Positions 12,096-32,000 of a stretch of DNA of 32,000 nt are shown one piece after another. The translations under genes were made by a program, and so were the position numbers. The stretch's first letter is position 1. Every line of letters starts with the position of its first letter. Origin of the DNA: Candidatus Absconditicoccus praedator. Lineage in GTDB: Bacteria; Patescibacteriota; Gracilibacteria; Absconditabacterales; Absconditicoccaceae. The DNA lies in NCBI RefSeq assembly GCF_021057185.1, contig NZ_CP054059.1, forward strand, positions 120,001-152,000, read 5' to 3'. The notes under the pieces are model-generated. The model worked only from the letters and a program-made list of their open reading frames with translations, was not told where the DNA came from and did not search any database.

Positions 12096-12175
12096 AATAA
12101 TTTTAAATTTTGTTTTGATTTTTTATAAAAATATATATAATGTTGGATAATAAGATTTATTAATTATCTTAATTT

Positions 12176-12631: not shown

Positions 12632-12647
12632 AATTAATTCTAATAAT

Positions 12648-12926
12648 ATGGCTGCTGAGTCTTCAAACGCATTTAAAGAATTTTTAGAGGAAAATAAACA
12701 ATGACTTAATAGTCTGGAGACTTCTATAGTAGAATCAAACTGCAATAAAATGTTGGATTTTTTGTATAATGAAGATGTTAATGTTTTTTTCAAATTGCTT
12801 GAAAAGTCAAAAAAATATAAAAATTGATTAATAATAAAAAAATTTTTAAGTAAAATAGATAGTGAGTCTGAATATACTGACACACAAAAAGAAGCATTAT
12901 CAGTAGCAAAATCTTATATAAGCTAA
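12648..12926 (+). CDS. Hypothetical small protein
   Basis: A 92-aa table-25 ORF (MAAESSNAFKEFLEENKQGLNSLE...) that continues the same-strand gene series. Confidence 0.45.
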
Positions 12927-12952
12927 TATTTTAATTTTAATGTTGATTCAGT

Positions 12953-13423
12953 ATGGAATGATATAGAACAGTTTGACATAAAGATATATGGAGTATTTTT
13001 TTGGTATTATTGAATTGATTATCAGTTTTGATATTAATAAATGCTTGGGCGGTTTTGATATTGTTGTGATGGGATATCCCTTGGTATTATTACCTTGCTA
13101 TAGTTGTTTTTGGTTTTGGGTTTTATGTGGTAATAAGAATAGTTAATTGAATTAGTTATGAATTTGACAAATCTTGAATTACTATAAACTCAGTTTGAAA
13201 CAAAAAATATTTTATAGAAAAGCACAATATAGAAAAAGTTGAATATATATGAAAAGAGTCTTGGTTCAAATGATTTTGAGTTAGGTATAATTTTTTTACT
13301 TGAGAAGTTTTATTTACTACAGGTTTGAATAATATATATAAGATATATACCACAGATTGAAGGCAAATTCTTATTTCTCCAAAAATTTTTAAAAAAGAGT
13401 TTTTCACATATTTCAATTATTAG
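12953..13423 (+). CDS. Hypothetical membrane protein
   Basis: A 156-aa table-25 ORF. Two TM-like segments (IWSIFLVLLNGLSVLILINAWAVLILL; YYYLAIVVFGFGFYVVI) are followed by a soluble tail. Confidence 0.55.
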
Positions 13424-13562
13424 TTTTGATATTTGGTTTATCCTAAGCAAGTTGTATTTTTTGTATAAAATTGAAATAATTTTGAAATATAATTTCTGCT
13501 TGATTTTTGTTGTTCAAATGAGTAGTATTTTTATGTAGTTATTTATGTATAAAAATATTAGA

Positions 13563-14165
13563 ATGAAAAAATTATATATTAATGCATCACCCAATTGAGA
13601 AAATTCATATTCTAAAGTTTTGTGAGATTATATAGACTCAAAAATCGTCTGAGAAACTGATTTTGTAGATTTGATAAAATCAGAAGTGCCTTTTCTTACA
13701 AGTGAATCTTTGGGTTATCATTTTGGCAAACTGGATTATGATGGTCTTTCTTCTGAATCAAAAATAATTGCAGATACTCAGCAAAATTATATAAATAAGT
13801 TGTTGGAAGCTGAAATTCTTATAATTTCTACTCCAATGTGGAATTTTGGTATGCCAGCTATTTTAAAAGCTTACTTTGACTTGATAATAAAACCTCAGTC
13901 TACTTTTAAGATTTGAGAAAATGGTTTTGAATGACTTGTACATAATATAAAGACTGCTTATGTTGTATGAGCAAGATGATGAATTTTCAAATGAGAAAAA
14001 TCTGAAAATATGGACAATTTATCATCTGAAACTAAAAAATTATTGAATTTTATTTGAGTAAACAGTGTAAGACAATTTTGGCTGGAGTGAACAGGTGTTT
14101 TGAGTGATAACCAACTACAAGACAATTTATCAAACTTGAAGAAAGAAATAGATGAAGTGGTTTAA
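13563..14165 (+). CDS. azoR: Flavodoxin-like fold FMN-dependent NADH-azoreductase-like protein
   Basis: The 200-aa translation includes MKKLYINASPNGENSYSKVL and ILIISTPMWNFGMPAILKAYFDLII, which resembles the AzoR/acyl-carrier-protein phosphodiesterase family signature. Stop TAA at 14163-14165. Confidence 0.65.
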
Positions 14166-14212
14166 TTTAAAAAATTTTAGAGGATTTTAATTTTCTATTT
14201 GTCTAACAAATT

Positions 14213-15274
14213 ATGTATAAAAATAAAAATGATGACTGATTTAATAATTTAGCATTTCAATATTTTGAAGCTATACAAGAATGAACTATTGTTTCAAAAA
14301 CTGATATAGACTGAAATATCACATACGCAAACGAAAAATTTTGTGAAATTTCTGGATACACTCGAGAAGAGCTGATTTGAAACTCTCATAATATGGTAAG
14401 ACATCCTGAAATGTCGGATGAGTTTTTCGCAGATATGTGGGATACAATAAAAAATAAAAAACAACCATTTTGGTGAACAATCAAAAATCAAAAGAAGAAT
14501 TGATGATATTATTGGGTAAAAGCTATGGTGAAGCCTATACTGGATGAAAATTGAAACATATTGGAGTTTATATCTTTAAGGCAGGATATTACTAAAGAAA
14601 AAGATTTTGAAGAAAAGATTAAAAGACAGTATGATTTTATAACATATGCATTCAATAAGTATGTTTCTCAAAATCTTATAGAAAAAATAATTTCAGAAAA
14701 CAAGTTGCCTACTGATTTTGAAAAAAGAAATCTTACTGTAATGTTTGTAGATATGGAAGATTATACATTTCTTACTGATAAGTTTGGTACAAAGAAAGTG
14801 GTGGAATTATCTTCTTTGTTTTTCAAGTATATTGTAAAATATGTTCAAAAATATTGAGGAAGTGTTGATAAGTATATTTGAGATAATGTAATGTGTGTGC
14901 GAAACTGATTTGAAGAAAATGAGTTTCATTCACAAAATGCTTGTAAGGCTGCTTTAGAAATTATTGGGAATATTTCTGAATTTAAAAATGAAGTAAAAAA
15001 AATTTTGTTGGATGATGTGAATATTCGTATATGAATAAGTAGTTGAGATTGTTTGGTATGAAATATTTGAACAGATGTAAAGTTTGATTATACTGTTATT
15101 GGATGACCTGTAAACTTAGCTTCTAGACTTGAGTGAGCAAACAAAAGATTTTGAACCAATATCTTGATAGACTATTTTTGTTATGAAAATATAAAAAATT
15201 CTCTTCAAGCAGATTTTATTGGTAATATAAAAATTCGTTGATTTCACAAAAAAGTTGATGTGTATTCTTTGTAG
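14213..15274 (+). CDS. PAS-domain sensor fused to a class III adenylate/guanylate cyclase domain
   Basis: The N-terminal half looks like a PAS domain (TIVSKTDIDGNITYANEKFCEISGYTREELIGNSHNMVRHPEMSDEFFADMWDTIKNKKQPFWGTIKNQKKNGGYYWV). The C-terminal half looks like a cyclase (RNLTVMFVDMEDYTFLTDKFG...YGGSVDKYIGDNVMCV...[38 protein letters not shown]). Confidence 0.8.
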
Positions 15275-15346
15275 TTGTTTTCAAAAATTCTTAAACTTGC
15301 TTTTAGATCTGTTTTATTTTTTTGTTGAATTGGTTTTCTAAAAAAC

Positions 15347-16123
15347 TTAATTTAACTCCAAGAAAAAACTTTTTTTCTTTATTACATTTGCAAAATTTTC
15401 TCAAAGTTTTGGGTCTATACTCATAGAAATTTTATACAACCTATTGATACTTGTGTGATACTTTCAAAGATCTATAATTTTTTCTATAACTTTATAGTCA
15501 ATAATTTTTTTGTATTTTTTTAGAATTTTTTTGGTTAGTTCTTGATTGTATTTTTCTACAATAATATCTGGACTATACAAGCTTTCAAGTAAGGCTAATT
15601 CTATACATGAATACTGGAACACGTTTTTTCAAATTTTTGTCTTGTTGGTGTGTTTTTTTAGTTTTTTGAAAATGTTTTCTTTTCAAGTTTTATATTTTTT
15701 AAAATTTACATACTTTCAGGAAAGTACAACCTCCTTGGCTTGTTTGTTTGGATTTATTATTTGAATTTCTTCTGGTATAGAAAAATCATTTATGTTTAAT
15801 TGTAGTGCTTTTATTCATCAAATATATCGATCTTTATCAAAATTTTCTTTGCAGTGATTTTTTAGTATATCCCAGTAATATTTTTCTATTAGATCTTCTT
15901 CTGTAATTTCTGTATTAGGATCTTTTACAAAAAAAATGTTTTTTTTGATTGATACGATGTATCATCTATTTTTTAGGTAATAAATAATTTTGTATGCTTT
16001 GGAGTCATTGTAGTTTGTATCTAGGATGTTTTGTACTATTTTTTTTATTTTTTGTGTTGATACAATCTTATTTTTGCTTTTTAATATTTTCTTAACAACA
16101 TTGTTGAAATAAGTGTTTTTCAT
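15347..16123 (-). CDS. Hypothetical protein, weakly AbiEi-antitoxin-like (wHTH)
   Basis: This is the only minus-strand gene in the left 29 kb, at 258 aa under table 25. AYKIIYYLKNRGYIVSIKKNIFFV and YIGGIKALQLN...FQYSCIELALLESLY resemble the AbiEi pattern. The family call rests on memory alone. Confidence 0.5.
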
Positions 16124-16287
16124 TTTCCTGTCTATTAGGCTATTTAAAGTAAAAAATTTATAACGATTTTTCTATAAAAATCAACATAAAGTTTCTATAA
16201 AAATTTTAAGAAAGTGTCTATTGAAATTAATTAAAAAAACTGTAAAACTATTTCAGTCAATTCAGGAAGTAATATGTAAGAATTTAT

Positions 16288-16575
16288 ATGTTAAATAATG
16301 TTTTAATGCAGCAGTTGAAATTATTTATGTGTGATAATGTATCTTGCAAAACAGTAAATATTGAGTCTATAGCTGCTGCATTTAGAAGGGTCTGAGATTC
16401 TACATATGAGGTGATCCTAGAGATTAATTCAAATAAGTTTTTAATTCTTTTTCAAACTACTATGAATAAAATAGAACAATTTGAGGTACTTGCTGTTAAG
16501 TGATTTGTGTCAGTTAGTAAAAATATTCTTAAGACATTAAAAAGGATTGTATACAAATTATATTTTGAATACTAG
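16288..16575 (+). CDS. Hypothetical small protein
   Basis: A 95-codon table-25 ORF (MLNNVLMQQLKLFMCDNVSCKTVNIESIAAAFRRVGDSTYEV...). I recognise no family and it could be non-coding. Confidence 0.35.
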
Positions 16576-16678
16576 CATTCTAATTTTTTGTTTTGTTGAT
16601 TAGAAAGAAAAAATTATTATTTATGTTGCTAAAATATCATTAGTTGATATGAAATATTTAAATTATAACTAAGTTTTT

Positions 16679-17011
16679 ATGGCTTGAGGAAAAGTAATAG
16701 AAGTAAACGATCAACAATTTGAGCAAGAAGTTTTGAATTCCGATATTCCTGTAATAGTAGATTTTTGGGCACCTTGGTGTGGTCCTTGTAACCAATTTGC
16801 TCCAACTTTTGAAAATCTTTCTGTTGATTATGAATGAAAAGTAAAATTTGTAAAAGTAAATGTAGATGAAAGCCAGCAATATGCTGCTAATTATGGAGTG
16901 ATGAGTATACCAACATTACTAATTTTCAAAAACTGACAAATCCAGGGTGAGCCTATGATGGGTGTTCAATCAGTGGATGTGATAAATCAAAGATTAAATG
17001 AGGTTTTATAA
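16679..17011 (+). CDS. trxA: Thioredoxin
   Basis: [42 protein letters not shown]...[15 protein letters not shown]. The WCGPC active site lies at 16775-16789, with Trp encoded by TGG. Confidence 0.93.
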
Positions 17012-17077
17012 AAACTATACCTTGAAGTTTTTGTTGCCTTTACAATAAAATATCTACTTTCTTTATAATAACTCAAA

Positions 17078-17728
17078 ATGAAAAAATTTAACTATCCGGA
17101 TTATTGTTGAGATAGTGTATTGAGAGTTTCAGTTGCAAACAAAGTTTCTTTGTTTCAAGAAAAATTAGTAGGTATTTTGAATAAGAATAGTTTAGAACAA
17201 AGTTGAGAAAGAGTATTAACTTGTGTGTGATGAGCAGCACAAGTTTTTGATTATGAGTATCTAAAAAGATTGGGTGCTTTTGATTTTTCAGTAAACGAAG
17301 ACTGAACTTATGATGCAAGGTTTTATATACCAAAGGAGATTCAATATCAAATTATAAGAGAAATTTTGGAGAAAAGAGAAAAGCTGGTGGAGTTTGATCC
17401 TTGAAGAGAGGTGCTAGAAGAGCTATCTATTGAAAAGGTATGAGATCAAGAAGATGTGATTTTGGATATAAAAGATGCTTTGGAAATTACTTATAAGTAT
17501 CTTGGTAGTTATGTATGAATGCGTAAATCTACAAGAAATCCAAAAGTTCAAACAATTGCTATATGGAATTATTTTGCATGAGAGCTTCCAGAGGATGTTG
17601 CTCAAAAATTGTTTGCAAGTAGTTATTTGTTTCAGATATGATCTCAAGAACTAGATAGGGGAATGTATTCTAATATATATCCATTATGAGAAGATATCAG
17701 AAAGGCTTTATCTTTTGAAACAAAATAG
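17078..17728 (+). CDS. Hypothetical protein
   Basis: A 216-aa table-25 ORF (MKKFNYPDYCGDSVLRVSVANKV...). I recognise no family. Confidence 0.55.
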
Positions 17729-17730
17729 TT

Positions 17731-18039
17731 ATGTGATTTATATTAGTGTATGTTGTAAATTCTGATAATAAAGAAGCAGATACGGTAATTTCTCATTTAT
17801 TGGAACAAAAGCTCATAGCCTGTGCCAATAAATTTTCTATACAAAGTAGTTTTATGTGGAAGTGAAATCTTGAAAATGAAAATGAAGTGGTGGCGTTGTG
17901 CAAGTCTATGGAGAGAAATTGGTCAAAGATCAAATCTGAAGTTGAGAAAGTACATTCTTATGAAACTCCTTGTATAATAAAAGTTCAATCAGAAGCCAAC
18001 AAAGAGTTTGAAGAATGGGTGGATAGTGAAGTTTTGTAG
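17731..18039 (+). CDS. cutA: Divalent-cation tolerance protein CutA
   Basis: The 102-aa translation (MGFILVYVVNSDNKEADTVISHLLEQKLIACANKFSIQSSFMWKGNLENENEVVALCKS...VHSYETPCIIKV) fits the CutA1 pattern. Confidence 0.8.
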
Positions 18040-18166
18040 TTTTTTATCAAATTTTATTGAAATTTTTGGGTTGTTTTGTAAAATTAAGTTGTTTATTGGT
18101 AAAAATGTTTGTATGAAAGTGTATACTATGAAATTCTATTTTTACAAGAATCAATGTTTAATCCAA

Positions 18167-18197
18167 AACAAGAGTTTTTCTGACTCTTGTTTTTTTT
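18167..18197 (+). terminator. Rho-independent terminator-like hairpin 20 nt upstream of the cas12a ATG
   Basis: A perfect 9-bp stem AACAAGAGT (18167-18175) / ACTCTTGTT (18183-18191) with a 7-nt loop, followed by a T-run. A perfect TATAAT lies at 18197-18202. Confidence 0.7.
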
Positions 18198-18217
18198 ATA
18201 ATTAAAACGAAATAAAA

Positions 18218-21200
18218 ATGACAAACTTCAAAGACTATACAAAACTTTATGAAATATCTAAAACCTTGAGATTTGAATTGAAACCAATCTGAAATACACT
18301 AGAGAATCTAAAAAAAGATTGAATTATCCAAAAAGATAGACAAGTACAAGAAAACTATACAAAAATAAAAGATTATTTTGATGATTTACATCGTGAATTT
18401 GTAAAACAAGCTTTGCAAGATGTATATTTGAATCAGTTAGAAGATTTTTATAATTCTTATATTGAATTAAACAAATCTCCTGAAAATAAGAAAAATAAAC
18501 AATTACAAAAAAAATTTGAAAAAGCATCCAAAGATCTGAGAAAAGAACTTGTGAAATTTTTTGAAGCTCAATGAAATAAGTGGAAACAAGAATATTCTTT
18601 TCTAAAAAAATGATGAATCGCAGTATTAAACGAAAAAGAAGTCTTGAAACTTATGTGAGAATTCTATCCAGAACAAAAAGATTTATTTGCTAAGTTTGAT
18701 AGTTTCTTTACTTATTTTGTAAATTTTAATGAATCAAGAAAAAATTTTTATGTTGATGATGGTAGAGCAGGTGCAATTGCTACCAGAGCTATTGATGAAA
18801 ATCTAATTACTTTTATCAAAAATATACAGGACTTTCAAAATTTCAAAAATAACTTTCCTGAATTTGTAAAAAATGAACTATCACAAGATGAACAAGCAGT
18901 TTTTGAATTAGATTTTTATAATAACTGTCTTTTGCAAGATTGAATTGATAATTACAATAAGATTTTGTGAGGTTATTCATTAGAAAATTGAGAAAAAATA
19001 CAGTGAATAAATGAAAAAATAAATTTATTCAAACAAAAACAAACTCATTCCAATAAGAAAGACATAAAATTTCCTAAATTTAAACTGCTTTACAAACAAA
19101 TACTTTCAGAAAAAGCTAAACAATCTTTTATAGAAGAATTAGAAGATGACAATGAAATGATTGAATTTATAAAAGAAAGTATTTCAAGAAATAAAGAAAA
19201 ATCAAATCAAGCCAAAAAGCTTATAGAATCTTTTATTTTCAAAAATAAAACTTATGAATTAGATAAAATATATTTAAGTAAGCAAGCTATAAATACTTTA
19301 TCAAGCAAATATTTTTCTGCTTGGGATTATATTAGATGATATTTTGGTAAATGAGAAATTGCAGATTTTGTGAGTTTTGAAGATTTGAAAGAAGTTTTGG
19401 AAAGTATTCCCTATGAAAAGCTTGAAGATGTATTCAAACATATTTATACAAAAGAAAATATTGTTTTTGAAAACAAAACTTTGTATCAAAACTTTTTGAA
19501 TGTATTTTACTATGAATTCAACAAAAATATTGATGAATTAATCCAATACGAACAATCTTTGAATCCTATTTTATCAAGCTTTGAAAAAAATAAGGAAAAT
19601 ATATGAGTTATTAAAAATTACTTTGATGCAGTTTTGTCAGTTTATAGTATGATGAAATATTTTGTATTGGAAAAAAATAGAAAAAAAGTAGAAGACAAAG
19701 AAACTGATAATAATTTTTATAATGAATTAAATGATTATTATACAGATTATGAGATTTGGAAGGATTACAATTTGGTAAGAAATTATTTGACCAAAAAGAA
19801 AGTAAAAACTGATAAGTTTAAATTAAACTTTGATAATTCTCAATTCCTTACTGGTTGGGATAAAGACAAAGAAAAAGAAAGACTTTGAGTAATTCTAAGA
19901 AAAGATTGAAACTATTATTTATGAATACTAAAAAATAATAAGCTTTTTGTAAATTATGATTACAGTTGATGAGAGTTTTATGAAAAGATGAACTATAAAC
20001 AATTAAATAATGTTTATAGACAGCTACCAAGATTGCTTTTCCCATTACAGAAAAAATTAGACTCTCTTTCTTGAAATGAATTAGATAAATATTTGTCAAA
20101 ATACATTGAAAAATTTGGTTATAATGAGGAAATTGCTAATATCAAAAAAGAATTTGATGAGTTTCAAGCAAGCAAAGAACAATGAGAAAAATTTGATCCC
20201 AAAAAATTAAAAAAACTTATCAATTATTACAAAAATGGATTATTGTTTTTGTATGGTGATGTGTATGATTTATCTGCCATAAAGTCAAAAGAATATGATG
20301 ATTTAGCTACATTTTATAAAGACATTGAAGAAAAAATGTATTCTCTAAACTTTAGCAAAATCGATTCAAACTTTATTGATGAAAAAGTGCAATCTTGAGA
20401 ATTATACCTTTTCCAAATATACAACAAAGATTTTGCCCCTGGTAAAAAAGCTTGAAGCAAAGAAAATATTCATACCAAATATTTCAAACTTTTATTTGAT
20501 CCAAAAAATTTAGAAAACTTAACTATCAAACTTTCTGGTGGTGCAGAAGTGTTTTTTAGAGACAAAACTGATGATTTGAATAAAGTGCTTGATAAATCTG
20601 GTAAAGAAGTAATACAACACAAAAGATATTCTCAAGATAAAATACTTTTCCATATTTCCACCACATTGAATGCAAATAAATGAGACAAATATCAATTCAA
20701 TCAAATGATAAATGAATATCTAAATAAAAATAAGGATATCAAAATTATTTGAATAGATAGATGAGAAAAGCATTTGGCATATTATTCTGTGATTGATAGA
20801 AATTGAAATATTATTGAAGTAGATACATTAAATAAAGTAAATTGAGTTGATTATTTGGAAAAATTGGAAGCTATAGAAAAATCAAGAAAAGATGCAAGGG
20901 TTAGTTGGTGAGAAATAGAAAATATCAAAGAACTAAAAAATGGTTATATCTCTCAAGTAGTTAACAAGTTGGCTGATTTGATAATAAAACACAATGCTAT
21001 TATAGTTTTTGAAGATTTGAATCAATGATTCAAGAGATGAAGACAAAAAATAGAAAAGCAGGTGTATCAAAAATTAGAGCTTGCTTTGGCAAAAAAATTA
21101 AATTATCTAACTTACAAAGACAAAGAACTTGATCAAGCAGGTGGTTATCTAAATGCTTGGCAGTTGGTACCCAAAGTTAATGATTATCAAGATATAGCAA

Positions 21201-21841
21201 AATATAAGCAATCTTGAATAATGTTTTATATTAGAGCAAATTATACTTCTACTACTTGTCCTTGTTGTTGATTTAGAAAAAATGTTTATATTTCAAATTC
21301 TGCTACCAAAGAAAAACAAAAGAAATTTTTTGAAAATGTAGCTATTAGTTTTGATGGAAACAAATTTGTCTTTGATTATGAAATTGTGCCAGACAAGAAG
21401 AAAAAAACAAACAAGACTAAATTTTCTATCAATAGTTCAAACAATAGATTAAGATTTAATACTAGAAAAATGGAAGTAGAAGAAATTGATATTACTGCTT
21501 GATTGAAAGATTTGTTTGCAGATATAGATTTGGATAGAGATATAAACCAGCAAATTTTGGGAAAAGATTCTAAGTTTTATAAGTCTTTGACTTTTTATTT
21601 CAATTTGCTTTTGCAGTTGAGAAATTCAGATAGTAAAAATGATATAGACTATATTATATGTCCATCTTGTGATTATCATAGTAAGGATTGATTGCAATGA
21701 AAAGCTTTTAATGCTGATGCAAATGGTGCATACAATATTGCTAGGAAATGAATTATGATTTTGGATAGGATAGATGCAAATCCTGAAAAGCCTGATTTGT
21801 ATATTTCTGATGATGATTGGGATAGATTTGTGCAAGGGTAA
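18218..21841 (+). CDS. cas12a: Cas12a (Cpf1), type V-A effector nuclease
   Basis: 1207 aa under table 25. The N-terminus is [31 protein letters not shown], and [11 protein letters not shown] is present. RuvC-I is [16 protein letters not shown] (GIDRGE = 20750-20767, both Gly encoded by TGA). The bridge helix is [22 protein letters not shown]. RuvC-II is [15 protein letters not shown] and RuvC-III is [14 protein letters not shown]. Stop TAA at 21839-21841. Confidence 0.97.
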
Positions 21842-21868
21842 AGTTTTTATTTATTAAAATGAAATATA

Positions 21869-24800
21869 ATGACAAATATAAAAGATTTACAAAATTTGTA
21901 TGAAGTAAATAAGACGGTGAGGTTTGAATTGTTGTCAATGTATTGAAATGAGGAAAGGTTTGATTTAGAAGTTTTTGATGATCTAAATTTCCTAAATGAT
22001 TTGCTAGATTTAGAAAAAAATATCAAACAAATTGAAATAAAAACAGATTGAAAATCATTTCAAAATTTATTGGATAATAATATTTTAAATGATATTATAG
22101 AAAAATCATTTCAAATTTTAAAAAATGAAATTTGTAGAATTATATATAATTGAGTAGTTTATGATACAAAGCCACAATCTAAAAAAAGTCAATATCAGTC
22201 TAATTTGGAATCTTTTACATGAAAAAATATAGATTATTTTAAACCAAAATGATTTGTAGGTAGAGATTATACACCCTGAGAAGATTTTTCTTATTCAAAA
22301 AAATCTGAATTGTTTTATTCATTGAAATTGATTTGAAAACTTGCATATGATAATGATTTTTTGGATAAATTAACTAAAGAAAGTAAAGAAAAATTACAAA
22401 TGATAAATAAATTTAATCCTAACTCAGAAAGCTTTTTTGAGACATTTACATTAAATCCATATACAGTAAATAGATGGAAATTAGAAGAAATTCAAAAAAA
22501 ATATAAAATTGTAAAAAGTAATTTTAATAAAGAAAAAAAAATAATAAATAATGAGTGAAAAAAAATAATAAATGAAACTTTAGAAAATGATATTTTTGAA
22601 AATAAATCAGAAGATAAAAAAATAAAATATTATAAAACAGTTTTTAATAATATACTTAAAAGTTGTGATAATAATGAAGATGATTTGTCTCATATTTATT
22701 TGTTAACCAACAAAATAGACTCTATACAAAATGATAAGAAATTGAATAATAAAATTGAAATAAAGAAAAATAGAATAAATGATTTAAAAAGAAAAATGAG
22801 AGATATTAATAAAATTAATTCTGAACTTTTAGGTTATAAAATTCATTTGATAGATAATTTTTGAATAGAGAAGTATAGCTTTTTGGTACAGTCAGAAAAT
22901 TATTATTTTTTGTGTCAAAAGAATTTTGAAAAGTTAAGTGATTTTTTAAATTATATAGAAACATTAAAACATTGAGATTCTGAATTGATTTACATTGATA
23001 GTATGACTTTTTGGGGATTTCAAAAAATGTTTTTATCTGAAAAAAGTGATGTAAAGTTTACGGATTGAAGCAATATAGAAGATTTGAATAAAAAAATAAT
23101 TGAGTTAGACAATAAAATATTTGAAACAAAAAGATGAATTGTTGATGAGTATGAGAAAAGAAAAAAAGAATTAGCTGACTCAATTAAAAACTCTATTGAG
23201 AATAAAGAAACAAATGATGATGTTAATAAGTTTCTTAATTTTATATGAAAAGAAAATATTGATGAATTAGTTAATAAAAAAGGAAAATTTGTTTATGATA
23301 AAAATTTAAACGAATATTGTAGAAACTATTTTAATTTAGATGAGATAGAAAAAGAATTTGATTTAGAAAATTTACAAAAACAATATCTAAATTTAGTTAT
23401 TGATTTGTTAGAAAAGATAAAAGATAAGAAATATGTACTATGAACAGAGGAAAAAGATTTGGCTTTTTTATGAGATATTACTAATTTTAAAAATGAAGAT
23501 AAAACTTTAGAAGATTTTAAAAATTATTTTGATGATGTATGATATTGAATAGAGACTAAAAATGTTGATTTGGATGCTATTTTATCACTTGCTAAAAAAT
23601 GAGAAATAGATATTTTTCAAATAAAATCAAAAGATATGCCATATCATGAAAGTTTTGTTAATGAAAATAATTGTGGAATAACTGATACAGCTTTGAATGA
23701 TAAAAAACTACCAAATTCCAAAAAAGACTTACAAACTTATTATTTTGAGTCATTCTTTGAAGATATAAAAAATAATAATAATTTTTCTAGAATATGAGCT
23801 GATTATAAAATTAGATGAGTAAATGCAAGTGCTAATATATGAGATGAAATAGAGAGTTTTTGGCAAAAAGAGAAAAACCAAAAAAGGCATGGGGACAAAA
23901 AAGATAAAATAAATAACTTTGTCACAAGATTTAAAAGAAATAGAAAATATGTTAACTTTTTTATGAAATTAAATGCTACAAATCATAATGATTTTGATGA
24001 AGTTAATAAAAAAGTTAGTAAACATATAAATGACAAGAAAAAAAGTAATAAATCACTAAAAGTATTGTCCATGGATCATTGAGAAAGTAGTTTTCTAACT
24101 TATAAAATATATGAATTCAAATTTGAGGATAGCGGAGGTTATAGTATAAATTTGTTAGATGATTGATGAAATTTTGATAATTTTCAGTTGAATACATCCA
24201 AAGATAAAATTGATAAATTTCAAAATGTAATACAAGAAAAAAGTCCTCAAGATAAGCAGTTTGATGAATTGATTTGAAACTATATTACTAAATATCACCA
24301 AATTATCCAAGATCAAAAAAGGGAAAGGCAGGTACAAGAATGAATTAAAGAATTTGCTAGCAAAGCTATCTCTAATATAAAAGAAATTGTAAGTAATGAT
24401 GAGGTTGACAATAATTGTCCTGAAGTTTCTAAATATACTATAGATAAAGTATTTTCTTTTATAAATTCAATTGTTAATGATTATGACATAAAAAATAAAA
24501 ATAATATTTTTACAATTCTTGAAAAAAATAAATTTAATTATTTTAAATATGAATTTTATAAAACACATCCAGATCAAAGAAACTTAAAAGAAGAGATTGA
24601 TAAATATATTTTTTGAATTCAAGAATTGCTTGAAGATAGAAATAAATTAGATGATTTTTGTAAAGAGATAAAATCTTCCTTTGATTGAATAAGTGAATCA
24701 GATCAAAAAAAATTAGAAAATACAGAATTCTTTAAGTATAAGAACAACTTTAAAACAAGCTTATCACAGATAAATAATTTAAAAAAGTGATATTCATCAG

Positions 24801-25312
24801 CTATTATTTGATGGATATCAAAAAAGATAATTAATAATGAAATTGACTTAATAGTTTTAGAAAATAATATACTATCATATTGAGTTGATAATTCAAAAGT
24901 TTTTACTAAGCATATGTGAACACAAAATCAATCAACTTTTGTACAAGCATTGATAAATAAATTATCATTTGTTTATGATAAAGAAAGCAAACAAAGCCAT
25001 CAATTTTGTTATCCGGTGAAAGCAACAAAAACTAAGGATCTGAAAGATTCTCAAAATTGAATTTTAGTATTTGTTGATGATAACAAAACTTCATTACTTT
25101 GTCCTAAATGTGATGAAAAATTAACAAGAAAGAAAGATAATTGAAATGAAATATTGTCTCATAAAGATGGTGAATGTGACTTCAAAATTGAAAAATGAAT
25201 AAAAGAAGAGGTGTATGATTGAATTGTATTTAAGAATTGAGATGATCTTGCAACTTATAATATTGCCAAAAAATGAATGGAATATATAAAATCTAAAGTA
25301 CAAAATAATTAA
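21869..25312 (+). CDS. Second, highly divergent Cas12-family RuvC nuclease (Cas12a2-like paralog)
   Basis: 1147 aa under table 25. The N-terminus MTNIKDLQNLYEVNKTVRFEL parallels Cas12a, and EIDIFQIKSKDM parallels [11 protein letters not shown]. The RuvC-I-like motif is LKVLSMDHGESSFLTYKIY (~24062-24088), and LKKGYSSAIIGWISKKI is bridge-helix-like. The RuvC-II-like motif is DLIVLENN (~24845-24868). CPKC...SHKDGEC is a zinc-ribbon-like segment (~25100-25160). The RuvC-III-like motif is NGDDLATYNIAKKG (~25236-25276). Confidence 0.85.
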
Positions 25313-25333
25313 ATCTTCAACCCAAAAATAAAA

Positions 25334-25537
25334 ATGCAAAACTATATCAAAATTTCTACTCTCAACGACTTTATCTTTTGCCCTAGATCTATTTATTTTC
25401 ATGAACTGTATGCCAAATACAATACCAAAAATTATCATCAAAAAGCTCAAACTGTAGGCAAACACAATCACGAAAATAAGGAAAACCAAAACTGGAAAAT
25501 CAAACATCTTGTTACAAAATATTTTCTATTTTTGTAA
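25334..25537 (+). pseudogene. cas4: cas4 remnant (N-terminal 67 codons only)
   Basis: MQNYIKISTLNDFIFCPRSIYFHELY...GKHNHE matches only the N-terminal Cys/CPR and G..H.E region of Cas4. The RecB nuclease motifs and the C-terminal Cys cluster are absent. Stop TAA at 25535-25537. Confidence 0.6.
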
Positions 25538-26337
25538 TATGAGATTGTACTATTACCACCAAATTGGTAAATAAATTATTAGAATTTGGAATAAGTGTTT
25601 ATTTTCTCAATCATAGCCTTGCTCCCAAATTTTTGATATGAAATCAACTGGAATGAAATTTTTTACTGAGACAAAAGCAATATAGTTTTGATAAAGAACT
25701 TGATATTTCCAAATTGATTGTCAAAAATAAAGCCGAAAATCAACTCATCTTGTTAAAATCTATCAGAAACAAAGATGCCAAAACCAAACAATGAATAAAT
25801 AAAATCAAATCTACAATTTCCAAAATAGATGCTGTCACAAATCAAGACTCTTTGAGATGATATGAGTGAAATGTTTCCAAAATCTTTTTTGATATATATT
25901 TCCAAGATATGAACTGGTACAAAAGAATGCCAAGGACCAAAATAGATCCTGCAAATCTGCTGATGGATATATGATATACTTTTTTGTATAATTTCCTTGA
26001 ATCCAATTTGAATTTGTATGGTTTTGATATTTATAAATGATTTTATCATCAGATGTTTTTCCAAAGGAAATCATTGGTTTGTGATTTGGTAGAGCCATTT
26101 AGATGTATCATAGACAAACAAATTGTAAAAATGAATAATCTAAATCAAATAAATGAAAAAGATTTTAAATTTGGAAAAGGGGAGTATTGGCTTCCTTGGG
26201 ATAAAAGAAATCATTATGTCAAATTATTGCTAGAGCCGATTTTGGAAAATAAAGAGTGAATTTTTAAATTTAGTAAAAGTTATTATAGAGCATTTGTCAA
26301 AGATGATTTGAATGAATTGGAATATTTTTATATTTAA
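25480..26337 (+). CDS. cas1: Cas1 integrase, apparently 5'-truncated with no start codon in frame
   Basis: The frame opens after the TAA at 25477-25479 and overlaps the cas4 remnant. It reads ...IFSIFVIGDCTITTKLVNKLLEFGISVYFLN...LRGYEGNVSKIFFDIYF...MPRTKIDPANLLMDIGYTFLYN...YHQMFFQRKSLVCDLVEPFRCIIDKQIV. About 30-40 N-terminal residues of a normal Cas1 are missing, and the first canonical start (TTG 25564) lies inside the conserved strand. Stop TAA at 26335-26337. Confidence 0.8.
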
Positions 26338-26348
26338 AACCAAATAAA

Positions 26349-26627
26349 ATGTTGATAGTTTCTTATGATATAAGTAATGATAAGGTTAGGACTAAGTTTT
26401 CAAAATTTTTGAAAAAATATGGTAGGAGATTGCAATATTCAGTTTTTGAAATCAAAAATAGTGAAAGGGTTTTGTGATTGATATTAGCTGAAGTTGATAA
26501 AATTTTTGCAAAATCATTTGAAAATACTGATAGTATTATTATATTTAGTATGTGTGAATGATGTGTCAAAAAAGTAGTCAGATATGGCTATGCAGTAAAT
26601 GAAGAAAGTGATTTGCTGTTTATGTAA
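26349..26627 (+). CDS. cas2: Cas2
   Basis: 92 aa: MLIVSYDISNDKVRTKFSKFLKKYGRRLQYSVFEIKNSERVLGLILAEVDKIF...DSIIIFSMCEGCVKKVVRYG. This is the typical Cas2 ferredoxin-fold pattern. Confidence 0.9.
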
Positions 26628-26874
26628 ATTCATACATAGTTGATCTTTAACAGTTATTTTGATAAACTACATTATTAGAAAATCATACTCTATGGTGATA
26701 GAAATAACAATGTGGGTTGTAATAAATAAGAAATTATAGTTAAGACTTGGGTTTGCAAAGAAAAATTGCAAAGCTATAGTCTTTATAAAAATGGATTGGC
26801 GGTCCAACTGGGTTTTGGAAGCTCGGACATAGATCTGTATGCTTCCAAACTCCAGTAAATAAGCCAAAAGTGCT
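26628..26874 (+). promoter_or_regulatory. CRISPR leader
   Basis: This 247-bp segment lies between cas2 and repeat 1, and the degenerate repeat sits at the far end of the array. A sigma70-like pair is present: TTGCAA (26753-26758), a 16-nt spacer, then TATAGT (26775-26780). That pair is low-confidence in AT-rich DNA. The leader also contains an inverted degenerate repeat copy (26665-26690) and a GC-rich extended hairpin (26796-26867). Confidence 0.6.
26665..26690 (-). repeat. Inverted, degenerate copy of the crRNA-handle half of the CRISPR repeat
   Basis: The plus strand AACTACATTATTAGAAAATCATA aligns to the reverse complement of repeat positions 13-36 (ATCTACAATAGTAGAAATATCATA) with 20 matches, 3 mismatches and 1 gap. 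On the minus strand it reads TATGATTTTCTAATAATGTAGTT versus the repeat TATGATATTTCTACTATTGTAGAT. Confidence 0.45.
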
Positions 26875-29472
26875 ATTTATAACTCATATGATATTTCTAC
26901 TATTGTAGATGCATAGGTTTTCAGTGTATCCAAGCAAAATTTATAACTCATATGATATTTCTACTATTGTAGATTGCTCTTTCAATATTCCATATTCAAC
27001 ATTTATAACTCATATGATATTTCTACTATTGTAGATTGTTTTTCTATCTTTAAAATCTTCTTGTAATATATTTATAACTCATATGATATTTCTACTATTG
27101 TAGATGTTGTGATGGACTCTGACTCTAATTTTAATTTATAACTCATATGATATTTCTACTATTGTAGATGCTCAATAAGATTGCCATTCTTCTAGAGGTT
27201 ATTTATAACTCATATGATATTTCTACTATTGTAGATTAAAGATATAAAAGCAATTTATCTATAAATTTATAACTCATATGATATTTCTACTATTGTAGAT
27301 ACCTATCTCAGTTTTGGTTGTTTAGCCTAAATTTATAACTCATATGATATTTCTACTATTGTAGATTGTTGCCGTGATCCTAAATGTTAATGGCATCATT
27401 TATAACTCATATGATATTTCTACTATTGTAGATAACTCTTTTTTCATCAGCTCTAATATAAGAATTTATAACTCATATGATATTTCTACTATTGTAGATT
27501 TTTTCTAATTCTTCGTTTTTGTTTTCATATTTATAACTCATATGATATTTCTACTATTGTAGATTTGTCAGTCAGGTGAATATCAAACTGAATATTTATA
27601 ACTCATATGATATTTCTACTATTGTAGATGGGCTAAGTAAGGAGCTTATACTTATTATTTATAACTCATATGATATTTCTACTATTGTAGATGGTGGTGG
27701 TGCACCTACGAGACAAGAAATTTATAACTCATATGATATTTCTACTATTGTAGATTGGGGTTCCGATTTTTTGTTGACTATTATTTATAACTCATATGAT
27801 ATTTCTACTATTGTAGATAACTTGATGTATCTATTCATGCATAAATTTATAACTCATATGATATTTCTACTATTGTAGATATTTGCATACTTCCATTTAA
27901 ATCATCAAATTTATAACTCATATGATATTTCTACTATTGTAGATTCTTTACAGTATTTAAGTAGTTCAGAATTTATAACTCATATGATATTTCTACTATT
28001 GTAGATACTTCATTGACTTCATTGTCATAATAATTTATAACTCATATGATATTTCTACTATTGTAGATTTGCGGAACATTGATACTTCAAAGATAATAAA
28101 ATTTATAACTCATATGATATTTCTACTATTGTAGATCAGTTTAATTTTGTATTTAATTGAAAATTTATAACTCATATGATATTTCTACTATTGTAGATAC
28201 TATCATACACCTCAAAACTTCATGTATATTTATAACTCATATGATATTTCTACTATTGTAGATATATAGTTTTTGATATCAAGAAATTCAATTTATAACT
28301 CATATGATATTTCTACTATTGTAGATTTTTTGTCTTGATATAGTTTTGCTATAATTTATAACTCATATGATATTTCTACTATTGTAGATAATTGTAGTCG
28401 TTCAGTCAACAAAAGAATTTATAACTCATATGATATTTCTACTATTGTAGATATTTATTGAATTGCTTTGAATTGTAACATTTATAACTCATATGATATT
28501 TCTACTATTGTAGATTGGCCGATATCTGATGACGCAAAAAAAACCAATTTATAACTCATATGATATTTCTACTATTGTAGATGAAGAAACACTAACAGAA
28601 GCTGGGGACCGTATTTATAACTCATATGATATTTCTACTATTGTAGATAGGTGCAAGAACCTGATTTATATTATTAAAATTTATAACTCATATGATATTT
28701 CTACTATTGTAGATATCAGGACTGAATGTTACTGAATATACATTTATAACTCATATGATATTTCTACTATTGTAGATTCCTTCTTGCTTTTTCTCTTTCG
28801 TTTATTTATAACTCATATGATATTTCTACTATTGTAGATATTATTAGGAAGTTGAATATTATCAGCTGATTTATAACTCATATGATATTTCTACTATTGT
28901 AGATCAAAGGGGCTGAATGTTACTGAATTTATTTATAACTCATATGATATTTCTACTATTGTAGATGCTATATTATCGTTCTTTTTATATTCATTTATAA
29001 CTCATATGATATTTCTACTATTGTAGATAATTGAGTGAGTTAGTGATTTGCATTTATTTATAACTCATATGATATTTCTACTATTGTAGATAATCTGATT
29101 TCTTTTCTGTCTTTAGATATTTATAACTCATATGATATTTCTACTATTGTAGATATTTTCATGAGAATTCTGATACTGGATTATTTATAACTCATATGAT
29201 ATTTCTACTATTGTAGATGTTTTGAATACCATTTTTATTTTATTAGATTTATAACTCATATGATATTTCTACTATTGTAGATTATTAGGATATAAACTAG
29301 ATACATAATCTATTTATAACTCATATGATATTTCTACTATTGTAGATTCACACTGTCTTCTAAATCTTTACAAATTTATAACTCATATGATATTTCTACT
29401 ATTGTAGATTTCAGCTTGCTTGTCCATATTTTCCATATTTATAACTCATATGATATTTCTAATTAAAACAAA
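26875..29472 (+). CRISPR. Type V-A CRISPR array: 40 identical 36-nt repeats, 40 spacers (26-33 nt), truncated terminal repeat
   Basis: The repeat is ATTTATAACTCATATGATATTTCTACTATTGTAGAT. Its 3' end, TCTAC-TATT-GTAGA-T, is the Cas12a crRNA handle stem-loop. Repeat 1 is 26875-26910 and repeat 40 is 29374-29409. The 41st copy matches only the first 25 nt (29437-29461) and lacks the stem-loop. I enumerated all repeats by hand and found every one identical. Confidence 0.99.
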
Positions 29473-29521: not shown

Positions 29522-32000
29522 TTATTGTTCACAAGCTTCTCACCAATTTGGTTGTTTGTCATCATTTCATTGGAATCCAGCTCATCTATCAAAGTGAACT
29601 ACTTGATTTCTTCAATTTATATTTTCAACACACCAACTACTAATATCTTGCTCAAATTTTTCAGCACTTCTAAACATAAATTTCATATCTTCTACAGAAT
29701 CAACATTCCATTCACTTATATCTTGATTAAAAGAACTTGCATTCCAAAACATTTTACTCATGTCTGTAACATTGCTTACATCCCAGTGAGTAATGTTATT
29801 TGTATCCCAGAAATCAACCTCATTTTCATCAGAAGAATTGTTTCCTGGTGCGTTTCATCTTCAGTTTCATCTTCAGTTTCATCTTCAGTTTCATCTTCCA
29901 TTTGAGTTTCTATTATTTGAGTTATTAAAGTTTTTGATGTCTTGAAATAAACCGCTTAAATCTTCTATGTTGGATCACAATTGTAGATCATCTAGTGTAT
30001 ATTGATTTTCATTAGGCTCTCAAGCTCAAGCAAAATCATATTTTTCTCAGTCTTTATCAACGACTTTACCTCATTTAATAGCATTTTCCAGTTGTTGTCT
30101 ATTATCAACAACTATATAATCTTGTTCATCTTTGTCATCATCTTCTTCCTTTTTCTCCAAAACTAGAGTAACAGATTTATCTTCTGTTAGCTCAATTGAT
30201 CTAGATTTACTTTCATATCAATCTTTTGAAGCTGTAAGTTCGTAGTCTCATTCTTCAAGCTCAAATGTTGCATTATATCATTCTTTTTGTTTGTCTCAAA
30301 CACTCAAAATTGAATCTAGTTGTTCTCAATCTTTGTTTTCTGTATTAACTTCTAAAGTGTAAATTTTGTCTTCATCATCTTCTTTTTTCTCTAAAACTAT
30401 AGTAATGGATTTGTCTTCTGTTAGTTCAATTGTTCTAGATTTGTCTTTATATCAGTCTTTTGAAGCTGTAAGTTCATAGTCTCATTTTAATACTGAAGTT
30501 ACTAAGTTTTGATATGTTACATTGGATCAATCTTTAGTGTTTCAGTTAAGATTTAGTTCTGCTTCTAGAGAATCTCAATTTTTATTTTCAACATTAATTT
30601 CTAGGTCAAATGTTTCTTCATCCAAAACTAGAGTAGTGGACTTATCTTCTGTTAGTTCAATTGTTCTAGATTTGTCTTTATATCAGTCTTTTGAAGCTGT
30701 AAGTTCGTAGTCTCATTCTTCAAGCTCAAATGTTGCATTATATCATTCTTTTTGTTTGTCTCAAATACTCAAAATTGAATCTAGTTGTTCTCAATCTTTG
30801 TTTTCTGTATTAACTTCTAAAGTATAAGTTTTGTCTTCATCATCCTCGTCCTCATCTTTATCTTTAATGGCCATTAAACTTTCATATAAATCAGGTATTT
30901 TTCCCGAAGTAGTTTTTGATGCAAGAGAATCAAGATTTCTTCAATTTTCTAATAATATGTCTTTAACTTCCAAATATGTAAGTTCTGGATCATAAGACCA
31001 CAATAGTGATAATGCTCATGCTACATATGGAGCTGCCATAGAAGTTCATTGTTTATTTGAATATTCATTGTCTAATACTGTAGATTTTATACCAACTCAA
31101 GGAGCAGCCAAATTTACAAACTTGTCTCAATAGTTAGAGAACCAAGCAAAACTCTCATCTGAGTCTATTGCAGCTACTGTGATAACATTATCTAATCATT
31201 CGATTTTTTCTCCTCCACAACTAAAATCTGCTGAATATGATGCAGGAAAGAACAACTCTTCATTCAGATTTGCTTCTACATTTCAAGCTGCAGCAACCAC
31301 AATTCATCATTCTTCCTTAAAATTTTCAATTTTATCATAAAAGAACATATCAAGCATTTCTTCATTACAACTATCTTTATCGTATGGTCCAGCTCATAGA
31401 CTCATGTTGATTATTTTTGCTCAATTGTTTTTTGAGAAACTTATTGCATCTATTATGTCTTCGGTTGTTGAAGCTGATCATCTTTCATCCAAAGCTTTTA
31501 CAGCCATTAATTCAGAATTTGGATTGATTCATGCAATTCAAACTTCGTTATCCATTTCTGCTCATATTATTCAAGCAACATGACTTCAATGTCAACTGTC
31601 ATCTTCAGGATTGTTGTTTTCATTCACATAATCATATCAATGTTTGCATCATCCACTTATTTCTTGAGAATCTTCATCTACACAATCAGAACCATCCCAT
31701 AGTTGATTTTTGAGATCTTCGTGTTCAGAATATATTCAGCTATCTACTACAGAAACCAATGACTTACCTCAAGAAGTAGTATCTCAAGAATATATGTTCA
31801 TAGCTTCTTGCCAGTTGATAGCTTCATGTCACCATAGTTCATCTATGTGTTCATCATTAGGTTGATATGGTTCAAAATCTAATTTTTCATATTTAAAATT
31901 GGGTTGAACCTGACTTATATCATTATTATCCTTAAATTTTGATATAAGTTCTTTGGTTGTATGTTTTTCTGATTTAGCTTTCAAGATGTTTTTTGCATTC
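29522..32000 (-). CDS. Mosaic secreted/surface protein: S8 subtilase domain + 3 tandem ~77-aa repeats + (GRGN)4 + DUF285/BspA-type repeats (5' end outside window)
   Basis: The minus-strand table-25 frame is open from 31999 down to the stop (TAA complement at 29522-29524). The catalytic triad contexts are VVDSGI, GHGSHVAGIIGA (~31559-31597) and GTSMAAPYVAGA. Repeat units carry GDYELTASKDGYKDKSRTIELTEDKS. The C-terminus reads WDVSNVTDMSKMFWNASSFNQDISEWNVDSVEDMKFMFRSAEKFEQDISSW. Confidence 0.9.
29852..29899 (-). repeat. 12-nt x4 tandem repeat encoding (GRGN)4
   Basis: The plus strand is GTTTCATCTTCA x3 plus GTTTCATCTTCC. The minus strand reads gga aga tga aac tga aga tga aac ..., giving GRGNGRGNGRGNGRGN. 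Seven of the 8 Gly codons are TGA. Confidence 0.9.
30159..30845 (-). repeat. Three intragenic tandem repeats of ~231-234 bp
   Basis: Copies start at 30159, 30393 and 30624 in plus-strand coordinates. Copies 1 and 3 are near-identical along their whole length. Copy 2 diverges in its second half. Confidence 0.85.

Follow-up and report, generated by a model that had tools for sequence, protein, structure and literature searches.

Genes of the locus

The window, as the whole stretch of DNA analysed here is called, comprises 32,000 nucleotides of Candidatus Absconditicoccus praedator (contig NZ_CP054059.1, positions 120,001 to 152,000) and was found to contain a type V-A CRISPR-Cas operon in which a second effector gene, here gene X, is placed between cas12a and a cas4 remnant, followed by the presence of cas1, cas2 and a CRISPR array. 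A. praedator is a predatory bacterium of the Absconditabacteria (SR1), among the few of the group in culture, and TGA is read as glycine in these bacteria. The first gene, cas12a (18218-21841, + strand), was found to encode a canonical type V-A effector of 1207 amino acids (aa) in translation table 25, with Pfam matches to REC1, REC2, RuvC_1 and NUC. Gene X (21869-25312, + strand) begins after a spacer of 27 nt and encodes a Cas12a-derived second effector of 1147 aa, as indicated by its open reading frame, profile homology, an AlphaFold (AF2) model and Foldseek. An initial annotation of the window had described it as an intact, strongly diverged Cas12a paralogue with Cas12a2 as the likely family; the paralogy was upheld by the reading frame and by PADLOC, BLASTP and hhalign, and the family label was not.

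In table 25, gene X was found to be the single frame of 1147 codons described initially, ending at a single TAA, and the table 11 reading was found to contain 39 stops, of which 38 are in-frame TGA codons. The frame of 3.4 kb is uninterrupted at a GC content of 21%, despite the ease with which TAA and TAG arise in such DNA. The translation was 100% identical to WP_231178444.1/UFX82655.1, which carries the database label "hypothetical protein". A separate assembly (Logan SRR15691272) was found to be 100% identical to window positions 11869-26910 across 15,042 bp that include the entire operon, and no artefact was found as far as tested; this assembly may share its sequencing project with the reference. 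A pseudogene and an assembly chimera were both considered for gene X and rejected on the intact frame, the identical second assembly and the ligands kept in the family.

Domain organisation and predicted structure of gene X

The AF2 model built from a 29-sequence alignment was found to be usable, with a predicted local distance difference test (pLDDT) value of 72.8 and a predicted template modelling (pTM) score of 0.55, whereas the single-sequence model was unusable (pLDDT 32.5). The 5′ end of the gene (21869-21930, + strand, codons 1-21; blastn and alignment) was found to contain the WED-I strand NLYEVNKTVRFEL followed by the presence of an interior (21931-25236, + strand) with the REC lobe, WED/PI, RuvC-I, an insertion, RuvC-II and a zinc ribbon. 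The RuvC-I motif SMDHGE lies in residues 730-742 (24056-24094, + strand; alignment and AF2), where a strand formed by residues 730-736 ends in the catalytic D736, followed by two more strands. D736 was found to be invariant in X, in its relative H3 and in six Cas12a4 sequences, and it aligns with the Asp of GIDRGE in every clade.

The insertion domain (residues ~766-964; 24164-24760, + strand), delimited by AF2 and alignment coverage, was found to contain a low-confidence start (771-796) and to be helical in the rest, with helices at residues 796-842, 855-870 and 903-936. Its alignment coverage was 13% for Cas12a, 54% for Cas12a4, 72% for Cas12a3 and 1% for Cas12a2. It is followed by helix 965-988 (LKKGYSSAII…), which leads to the RuvC-II strand 994-998 (IVLENN) ending in the catalytic E998 (24761-24877, + strand). 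The zinc-ribbon region (25079-25231, + strand) was found to contain C1078-x2-C1081, H1098 and C1103, with short β-strands between residues 1086 and 1121 (pLDDT 83-90), followed by the presence of the RuvC-III helix GDDLATYNIAKKG at residues 1124-1146 with the catalytic D1125 at its start (25232-25309, + strand; alignment).

The residues D736, E998 and D1125 as well as C1078, C1081 and C1103 were found to be invariant in X and its relatives H3 and H4 and to align with their equivalents in all clades, which bears out the claim that the D/E/D residues are retained. Both sets of ligands were kept in four family members that are 38-48% identical. In the model these residues lie where confidently predicted strands or helices end, and the topology is consistent with a RuvC-like order in which the triad would converge. 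The two architectural features put forward initially were also recovered: an insertion of ~200 aa separates RuvC-I from the bridge-helix-like segment, and the CxxC…H…C pattern, the 127-aa gap between RuvC-II and RuvC-III and the AF2 β-strands together point to a predicted zinc ribbon where Cas12a has its Nuc domain. In the neighbouring Cas12a (18218-21841), CPCC (1014-1017) and CPSC (1148-1151) were found to flank Nuc and to align with CPKC and C1103 of X, and this arrangement has the look of a zinc ribbon parted by an inserted Nuc, which suggests how a state with the ribbon alone is related to Cas12a. Since the two halves align and Nuc lies between them, the ribbon of X resembles that of Cas12a minus the Nuc insert.

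In a Foldseek search with the X model, Ba1Cas12a3 (9hlx, E=1.3e-12) and BaCas12a3 were the leading matches, followed by many Cas12a structures, and no Cas12a2 structure was found in the top 50. The global template modelling (TM) scores were ~0.3, as expected for multi-lobed proteins in differing states.

Similarity to the neighbouring Cas12a

All six motif pairs that had been claimed between X and the neighbouring Cas12a were found where stated and share their columns in an alignment of 32 sequences. The motif LYEVNKTVRFEL of X is at residue 10, as is its Cas12a counterpart, followed by IDIFQIKSKDM at 580 (counterpart at 729), the RuvC-I motif SMDHGE at 734 (GIDRGE at 845), the bridge-helix-like LKKGYSSAIIGWI at 971 (counterpart at 906), the RuvC-II motif IVLENN at 995 (IVFEDLN at 929) and the RuvC-III motif GDDLATYNIAKKG at 1124 (counterpart at 1166). 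Between the RuvC-I Asp and LKxGY, X has 235 aa and Cas12a 59 aa, and between the Glu of RuvC-II and the Asp of RuvC-III the lengths are 127 aa and 235 aa, close to the earlier estimates of ~240/~60 and ~130/~235.

The broad PADLOC Cas12a model was found to match X with E=3.2e-10. BLASTP of X against the neighbouring Cas12a gave E=1e-5 in the RuvC-II region, with 67% identity over the N-terminal 21 residues, and hhalign against a Cas12a alignment gave a probability of 98.9 (E=3e-17). At the level of sequence the similarity is therefore weak yet more than chance. No relevant match to X was found among the Pfam and NCBIfam models, of which the neighbouring Cas12a matches four Pfam families, or in PDB sequence searches with X alone and with a five-sequence profile, though Cas12a and Cas12a3 structures are present there; X is thus far diverged.

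The features common to X and Cas12a were found to be the WED-I strand, the WED-III/'FQIxxKD' region, the RuvC-I, RuvC-II and RuvC-III motifs, the TS..CPxC half-ribbon and the repeat type. In contrast, the REC1, REC2, RuvC_1 and NUC Pfam matches of the neighbour were not found in X, which is without a Nuc domain and in which RuvC-I and the LKxGY helix are set apart by an additional ~175-200 aa. Cas12a forms a clade at 100% bootstrap without X, so that X does not cluster inside ordinary Cas12a.

Placement among the Cas12a-derived clades

Besides Cas12a2, the sister clades Cas12a3 (cleavage of tRNA tails) and Cas12a4 (RNA-activated cleavage of RNA) were added in January 2026 in Nature (PMC12851939), and clade alignments were made from the FASTA of that paper. 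The X-family profile was found to match Cas12a4 best by hhalign (score 317, probability 99.9, E=2.8e-37; X residues 4-1145), followed by Cas12a3 (score 191, E=5.8e-22; 315-1137), Cas12a (score 152, E=3e-17; 543-1082) and Cas12a2 (score 89, E=1.2e-9; 963-1138). For calibration, Cas12a4 subgroups were compared with the remaining Cas12a4 (435-630) and the named clades with one another (179-444). The score of 317 falls below all of the within-Cas12a4 controls and lies at the between-clade level, so that X is nearest to Cas12a4, at a distance such as is typical between separate clades.

Trees were built by neighbour-joining (NJ) with bootstraps on Kimura or Scoredist distances. The X family, Cas12a, Cas12a2 and Cas12a3 were each found to be a clade at 100% in all NJ trees. 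The Kimura trees were found to nest X within Cas12a4 beside ca76, ca82 and ApCas12a4, with X and Cas12a4 together in 50% of the replicates, whereas the Scoredist trees contained Cas12a4 without X in 55-68% and Cas12a4 with X in 1-8%; the placement of X is thus unstable. The mean distance of X was lowest to Cas12a4 (2.06-2.19). In the quartets Cas12a2 and Cas12a3 were paired with X excluded in ~80%, and quartets with Cas12a as the fourth group did not settle how X, Cas12a4 and Cas12a branch relative to one another. DSMTF and YFESFF, two motifs invariant in the X family, were absent from the entire published set of Cas12a2, Cas12a3 and Cas12a4 orthologues (PMC12851939). Searches of X against the reference Cas12a2, Cas12a3 and Cas12a4 sequences by phmmer gave at most 21 bits, which is not discriminating, and linked no full-length Cas12a4; ca76 and ca82 were found to contain a weak match at the C-terminal end.

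Cas12a2 is described as a Cas12a paralogue with an insertion for the bridge helix and a zinc ribbon for Nuc, able to share repeats with Cas12a (PMC9811890, PMC9849127). If X were a true Cas12a2, it would be triggered by RNA, shred double-stranded DNA (dsDNA), single-stranded DNA (ssDNA) and RNA, and act in abortive infection. The gross architecture of X, with its insertion and its zinc ribbon for Nuc, the Cas12a-type repeat and the co-occurrence with Cas12a would all fit (PMC9811890), Cas12a2 is known from related SR1 bacteria (AbCas12a2, for example), and the spacing of the triad is comparable (D848/E1063/D1213 in SuCas12a2, D736/E998/D1125 in X). The sequence tie was, however, the weakest of the four clades and limited to the C-terminal core, and the insertion, placed at the same position, could be aligned over only 1%. 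X and Cas12a2 were together in 0-3% of the bootstraps, the quartets paired Cas12a2 with Cas12a3 instead of X, and the Foldseek top 50 was without any Cas12a2. The aromatic clamp used in collateral cleavage of dsDNA (PMC9849127) was not located in X, where the region is unalignable to Cas12a2; its residues are poorly conserved in Cas12a4 and absent in Cas12a3 (PMC12851939). Membership in Cas12a2 was rejected on these grounds, and this reading is considered very improbable. Of what the initial annotation expected from profiles, structures and trees, the relation to Cas12a and the position outside it were borne out and the grouping with Cas12a2 was not; its fallback, a distinct undescribed type V lineage, came closer.

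Ba1Cas12a3 and its relatives gave the second-best profile match and the top Foldseek matches (9hlx, 21we, 21wj). The N-terminal 314 residues of X were found not to align to the Cas12a3 profile, Cas12a3 was a clade at 100% bootstrap without X, and X joined it in 3-9% of the replicates. Membership in Cas12a3 was likewise rejected.

Cas12a4 consists of ApCas12a4 and 15 orthologues (PMC12851939). It was the sole clade with a full-length profile match to X, and the order of the domains is alike. The short CxxC…H…C zinc ribbon of ApCas12a4 has the pattern of X, the three RuvC motifs are present in both, and the motifs 'NLKKGY' and 'GDDLA(T/A)YNIAKKG' of ca76 and ca82 were also found in X. The proteins are of similar size, some members of the clade are from Absconditabacterales/SR1, and Cas12a-type arrays with cas1, cas2 and cas4 occur near the X family as well, as seen in the window and in the loci L002, L005, L006 and L001. 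X could accordingly be a fast-evolving, compositionally biased member of Cas12a4, an RNA-activated RNase like ApCas12a4 and no new clade. The best and full-length match, the Kimura position beside ca76, ca82 and ApCas12a4, the shared ribbon, the SR1 members of like size and the lowest mean distance speak for it; against it stand the Scoredist bootstraps, a score under every within-clade control, the missing DSMTF and YFESFF, and the lack of a full-length phmmer link among 1.84 billion proteins and the Cas12a4 references. The identity to X is ~20-24%, the nesting is not robust, only 54% of the insertion is alignable, and the RuvC-I of Cas12a4 reads G(I/L)DRG, not SMDHG. Simple membership in Cas12a4 is given a modest probability and is not preferred. 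On its sequence, X is neither Cas12a2 nor Cas12a3; two placements are left for it, as a highly divergent branch of Cas12a4 or as a fifth clade. No paper naming a Cas12a5 or citing the accession of X was found in the literature searched.

Relatives of gene X and their arrays

A phmmer search over 1.84 billion representative proteins was found to contain 18 matches to X and no significant Cas12a, Cas12a2, Cas12a3 or Cas12a4 protein. Beside a copy of X translated with code 4, two of the matches were full-length (46% and 38% identity) and the others were short fragments, which could stem from standard-code gene calling on recoded genomes. The database "relative" at 97% identity was X itself in code 4, and word-indexed homology searches with X and with the X-family profile returned only these two forms. 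A scan of sequence collections added the complete genome of Ca. Gracilibacteria bacterium HOT-871, with a homolog of 1231 aa that is the same protein as a metagenome match in ENA, and a metagenome contig with a relative of 1277 aa. The X family thus consists of X, three full-length relatives and fragments, all unnamed or "hypothetical" and all from TGA-recoded Absconditabacteria/Gracilibacteria. The family genes were found to contain 38-42 in-frame TGA codons each at 20-21% GC, and the family is absent from the published sequence set of Cas12a2, Cas12a3 and Cas12a4.

In HOT-871 and in the matching ENA scaffold (L002), the homolog was found to precede an array of its own (5-10 repeats, GATTAAAAATAATAAAATTTCTACTAGTTGTAGAT), after which come cas12a, cas4 and cas1; the scaffold continues with cas2 and a second array with a different repeat. 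L006 was found to contain the homolog and a repeat of the GATTAAAAATAATAAAATTTCTACTAGTTGTAGAT type alone, with no cas12a, cas1 or cas2 within 10 kb downstream (~180 nt were available upstream). In L001 the homolog was the sole Cas12-like gene in a contig region of 26 kb, and the contig breaks off within the first part of a Cas12a-type repeat. Every repeat examined, that of the window included, was found to fold into a Cas12a-type 3′ hairpin. As the relatives carry Cas12a-type arrays of their own, one of them without Cas12a or adaptation genes in the available flank, the X family is probably an autonomous effector guided by CRISPR RNA (crRNA).

The arrays were located at 13786-14074 and 20506-21181 in L002, at 13756-14425 in L005 and at 4106-4706 in L006. 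In the two-array loci of Gracilibacteria, the repeat beside the X homolog was found to contain a 5-nt loop (TCTAC-TAGTT-GTAGA) and that beside cas2 a 4-nt loop (TCTAC-TTTT-GTAGA), and the differing repeats may mean that the two effectors discriminate between the arrays. A restriction-modification pair, a protein of 235 aa and an Eco57I-like methyltransferase/endonuclease, was found at 14027-16181 of L001 between the homolog and cas4-cas1. One X-family C-terminal fragment (P0005, 423 aa) was found to end in a Cas12a-type tail, RKGVMMLERIKENPEKPDLLIRDAEWD, which is almost the same as the C-terminal end of AbCas12a of an oral SR1 bacterium; this protein could have arisen by natural recombination between X and Cas12a or be a chimera of the assembly. 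A further protein (P0020, 1123 aa), related to ca76 and ca82 of Cas12a4, was found to contain GIDRWSISS… at RuvC-I with an insertion, followed by the presence of NNDVRAWFVIAKK in the RuvC-III region. This Cas12a4-like sequence possibly has a degenerate active site; the W may stand for G, since the translation is in code 4.

Comparison with the Vampirococcus locus

The X-family profile search also recovered the Vampirococcus lugosii protein Vamp_48_93/WP_213348974.1, for which Moreira et al. had suggested in 2021 that it might be a new type V effector (PMC8080830). By alignment and tree, this protein was found to sit inside Cas12a3, beside ca23Cas12a3. The layout of its locus is that of the window, with the Cas12a3-type gene where the window has X, after cas12a and before cas4. 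The identity between the two loci was 85.7% for Cas12a, 84.4% for Cas1 and 89.1% for Cas2 (aa), whereas it was 22.5% (global) for the second effector.

DNA homology to Vampirococcus (84-88%, blastn) was found to span cas12a, the spacer and the first codons of X as far as 21930 (codon 21), where it is lost, and to return at 25237, 25 codons ahead of the stop of X, and run on into cas4. By blastn, the interior of X (21931-25236) was found to have no match in the DNA of the Vampirococcus gene at the syntenic position. At the protein level, 20 of the first 22 residues are shared and the C-terminal stretch GDDLATYNIAKKGMEYIK is identical. Because homology is lost at ~21930 and regained at ~25237 between flanks that are ~85% identical, the interior is read from the sequences as exchanged in place, Cas12a3-type against X-type, with no direction implied.

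The ends of X (21869-21930 and 25237-25312) were 83-86% identical in DNA to the corresponding ends in Vampirococcus (L007, 6380-6441 and 9784-9856), the 5′ end at ~86%, and this suggests that the conserved gene ends served as recombination sites. In a control, X and H3 were found to be 73-78% identical at the same ends, and motif conservation accounts for part of the similarity; as the gene termini are conserved motifs, the breakpoints are less certain than the replacement.

In the related genus Strigamonas, a "divergent Cas12a" was described as highly similar to proteins on JABCPD020000008.1 and JAQVDN010000005.1 (PMC13059738). These contigs were found to carry AbCas12a2 and another listed Cas12a2, so that the Strigamonas protein is probably Cas12a2-like. 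If so, three genera of a single family would contain three different Cas12a-derived paralogues.

Adaptation genes and array of the window

Downstream of gene X, the cas4 remnant (25334-25537, + strand; tblastn with the Cas4 of HOT-871 and comparison with Vampirococcus) was found to be an open reading frame of 67 codons in which residues 1-54 of the ~182-203 of Cas4 are recognisable, out of frame with cas1. The cas1 gene (25480-26337, + strand) was found to be truncated at its 5′ end: its frame opens at 25480, only positions 49-280 of the Pfam Cas_Cas1 profile are matched, and a canonical start is first encountered at 25564 (TTG), the equivalent of residue 62 in the Vampirococcus Cas1. It is followed by cas2 (26349-26627, + strand), which encodes 92 aa with a match to Pfam CRISPR_Cas2. 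The adaptation module (25334-26337) is thus damaged, with 537 bp missing relative to Vampirococcus, cas4 cut down and cas1 shortened; the systems of A. praedator were described as complete in a 2026 paper.

The CRISPR array (26875-29461, + strand) was found to contain 40 identical repeats of 36 nt, ATTTATAACTCATATGATATTTCTACTATTGTAGAT, and 40 spacers of 26-33 nt, followed by the presence of one degenerate terminal repeat. It is the one array within the window and its repeat folds to the Cas12a-type 3′ hairpin, as had been claimed on both counts. With one array in the window, sharing between Cas12a and X is the simplest reading, and the array is presumed to be common to them. Spacers 29 (28715-28741) and 32 (28905-28930) were found to share a core of 16 nt, CTGAATGTTACTGAAT, which suggests repeated acquisition from variants of a single target. 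No self-targets of the spacers were found in the window or in the fetched loci.

The damaged adaptation module bears on another account, in which X is a decaying or nuclease-independent relic, for instance a regulator that binds crRNA, in a CRISPR locus undergoing loss. A RuvC-I off the consensus and the CRISPR decay reported in a related genus (PMC13059738) are in line with it. The unbroken frame of 1147 codons in DNA of 21% GC, the catalytic and zinc ligands kept in four members at 38-48% identity, the 40 perfect repeats of the array and the homologs with arrays of their own in other genomes argue against it, and a relic is regarded as the least probable of the readings considered.

Proposed function of gene X

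ApCas12a4, Ba1Cas12a3 and MpCas12a2 are all activated by RNA, and ApCas12a4 cleaves RNA only (PMC12851939). As all tested enzymes with the combination of insertion and zinc ribbon are RNA-activated, an RNA trigger is proposed for X by analogy. With a probability of about 0.6, X is held to be an intact crRNA-guided, RNA-triggered RuvC nuclease of an unnamed deep Cas12a-derived lineage, with Cas12a4 as its best profile match and not Cas12a2. In this proposal X would bind crRNAs from the Cas12a-type array that also serves its neighbour and would recognise complementary invader RNA instead of DNA. Its RuvC site would then open and cleave bystander nucleic acid, with RNA as the most plausible collateral substrate by comparison with ApCas12a4; this guess leans to RNA as Cas12a4 is the nearest clade and X has no alignment to the dsDNA-clamp region of Cas12a2. 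The outcome would be arrest of the cell instead of clearance of the invader, and X would form a transcript-sensing second tier behind the DNA-cutting Cas12a. The sequences themselves show that the gene is intact, what it is homologous to, its catalytic and zinc-binding residues, its architecture, its association with arrays and the history of the locus; the sharing of crRNAs, the RNA trigger and the collateral substrate belong to the proposal.

Several points weigh against the RNA-triggered nuclease, in addition to the low score and the quartets given above. The unstable clade placement makes the transfer of the Cas12a4 activity to X weak. The RuvC-I motif of X was found to read S-M-D-H-G where G-I-D-R-G is near-universal in the alignment. 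The crRNA-processing residues were not identified, as mapping of H759, K768 and K785 of LbCas12a was uninformative; the WED-III region of X aligns, and the column of the catalytic Lys of Cas12a is not conserved in X, Cas12a4 or Cas12a2. Exact-match scans of IMG/VR for spacer 8, spacer 13 and the core common to spacers 29 and 32 gave no protospacer. Zinc-ribbon/TNB modules occur in other, DNA-cutting Cas12 subtypes, so that a missing Cas12a-type Nuc is no proof of RNA targeting.

The last point leads to the reading of X as a Cas12 variant that targets DNA and is no RNA sensor; it would add a second enzyme of DNA interference, with another protospacer-adjacent motif (PAM) or with resistance to anti-CRISPR proteins. 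Descent from Cas12a with the full RuvC triad kept and the CPCC/CPSC pairs around Nuc in the neighbouring Cas12a would agree with such an enzyme, and RNA targeting by X is argued by analogy. The tested relatives with insertion and zinc ribbon (Cas12a2, Cas12a3 and Cas12a4) are, however, all activated by RNA targets, and X is without the Nuc domain, which in Cas12a takes part in loading of the DNA target strand according to the Cas12a2 structure paper (PMC9849127). The coverage to Cas12a was found to be 36% over residues 331-725, which are expected to hold the PAM-interacting region. A DNA-targeting variant is therefore thought unlikely, and the RNA-triggered nuclease is preferred.

A broader proposal, put forward tentatively and as less probable than the RNA-triggered nuclease, is that the X family makes up an independent clade, the fifth, of target-activated nucleases derived from Cas12a and is confined to TGA-recoded Absconditabacteria/Gracilibacteria, with its own rule of substrate or activation and with effectors as exchangeable cassettes. 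If true, the substrate or activation would be unlike those of Cas12a2 (dsDNA, ssDNA, RNA), Cas12a3 (tRNA tails) and Cas12a4 (RNA), and swaps would take place by recombination at the conserved gene ends within a stable cas12a-cas4-cas1-cas2 locus.

Other features of the window

No Rfam family was matched in the window. A GC-rich unit of 37 nt, CCCTAAATTATCGCGCGAAGTTTGAGGTATGCAGCAT, was found in ~4 tandem copies in an intergenic region at 8615-8766, in a genome of 27% GC, and is likewise without an Rfam match. A subtilisin-like protease of 820 aa (29522-31984, - strand) was found directly past the CRISPR array. It contains long internal repeats, and its acidic run is encoded by a perfect tandem repeat of 12 nt (29852-29898).

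Implications

Auxiliary Cas12a-derived effectors beside Cas12a are already known, and unannotated open reading frames inside type V-A operons of these phyla were noted in a 2023 survey (PMC10746230). What is new is an unnamed lineage at clade-level distance, with a repeat type of its own and an in-place swap with a Cas12a3-type gene, as well as its apparent restriction to recoded bacteria. The 38-42 in-frame TGA codons would break the family genes under standard gene calling; this is a blind spot of surveys and may explain the fragments.

The named clades beside Cas12a were found to differ in activity, with dsDNA shredding in Cas12a2, cleavage of tRNA tails in Cas12a3 and cleavage of RNA in Cas12a4 (PMC9811890, PMC12851939). 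Since each named clade so far has a different activity, the X lineage is a candidate for another substrate preference, and it is a candidate for a further diagnostic or counter-selection tool. As A. praedator is cultivated, tests of expression and phage defence are at least conceivable. The Absconditicoccus-Vampirococcus pair represents the exchange of an auxiliary effector at a fixed position and bears on the evolution of "two-tier" CRISPR immunity.

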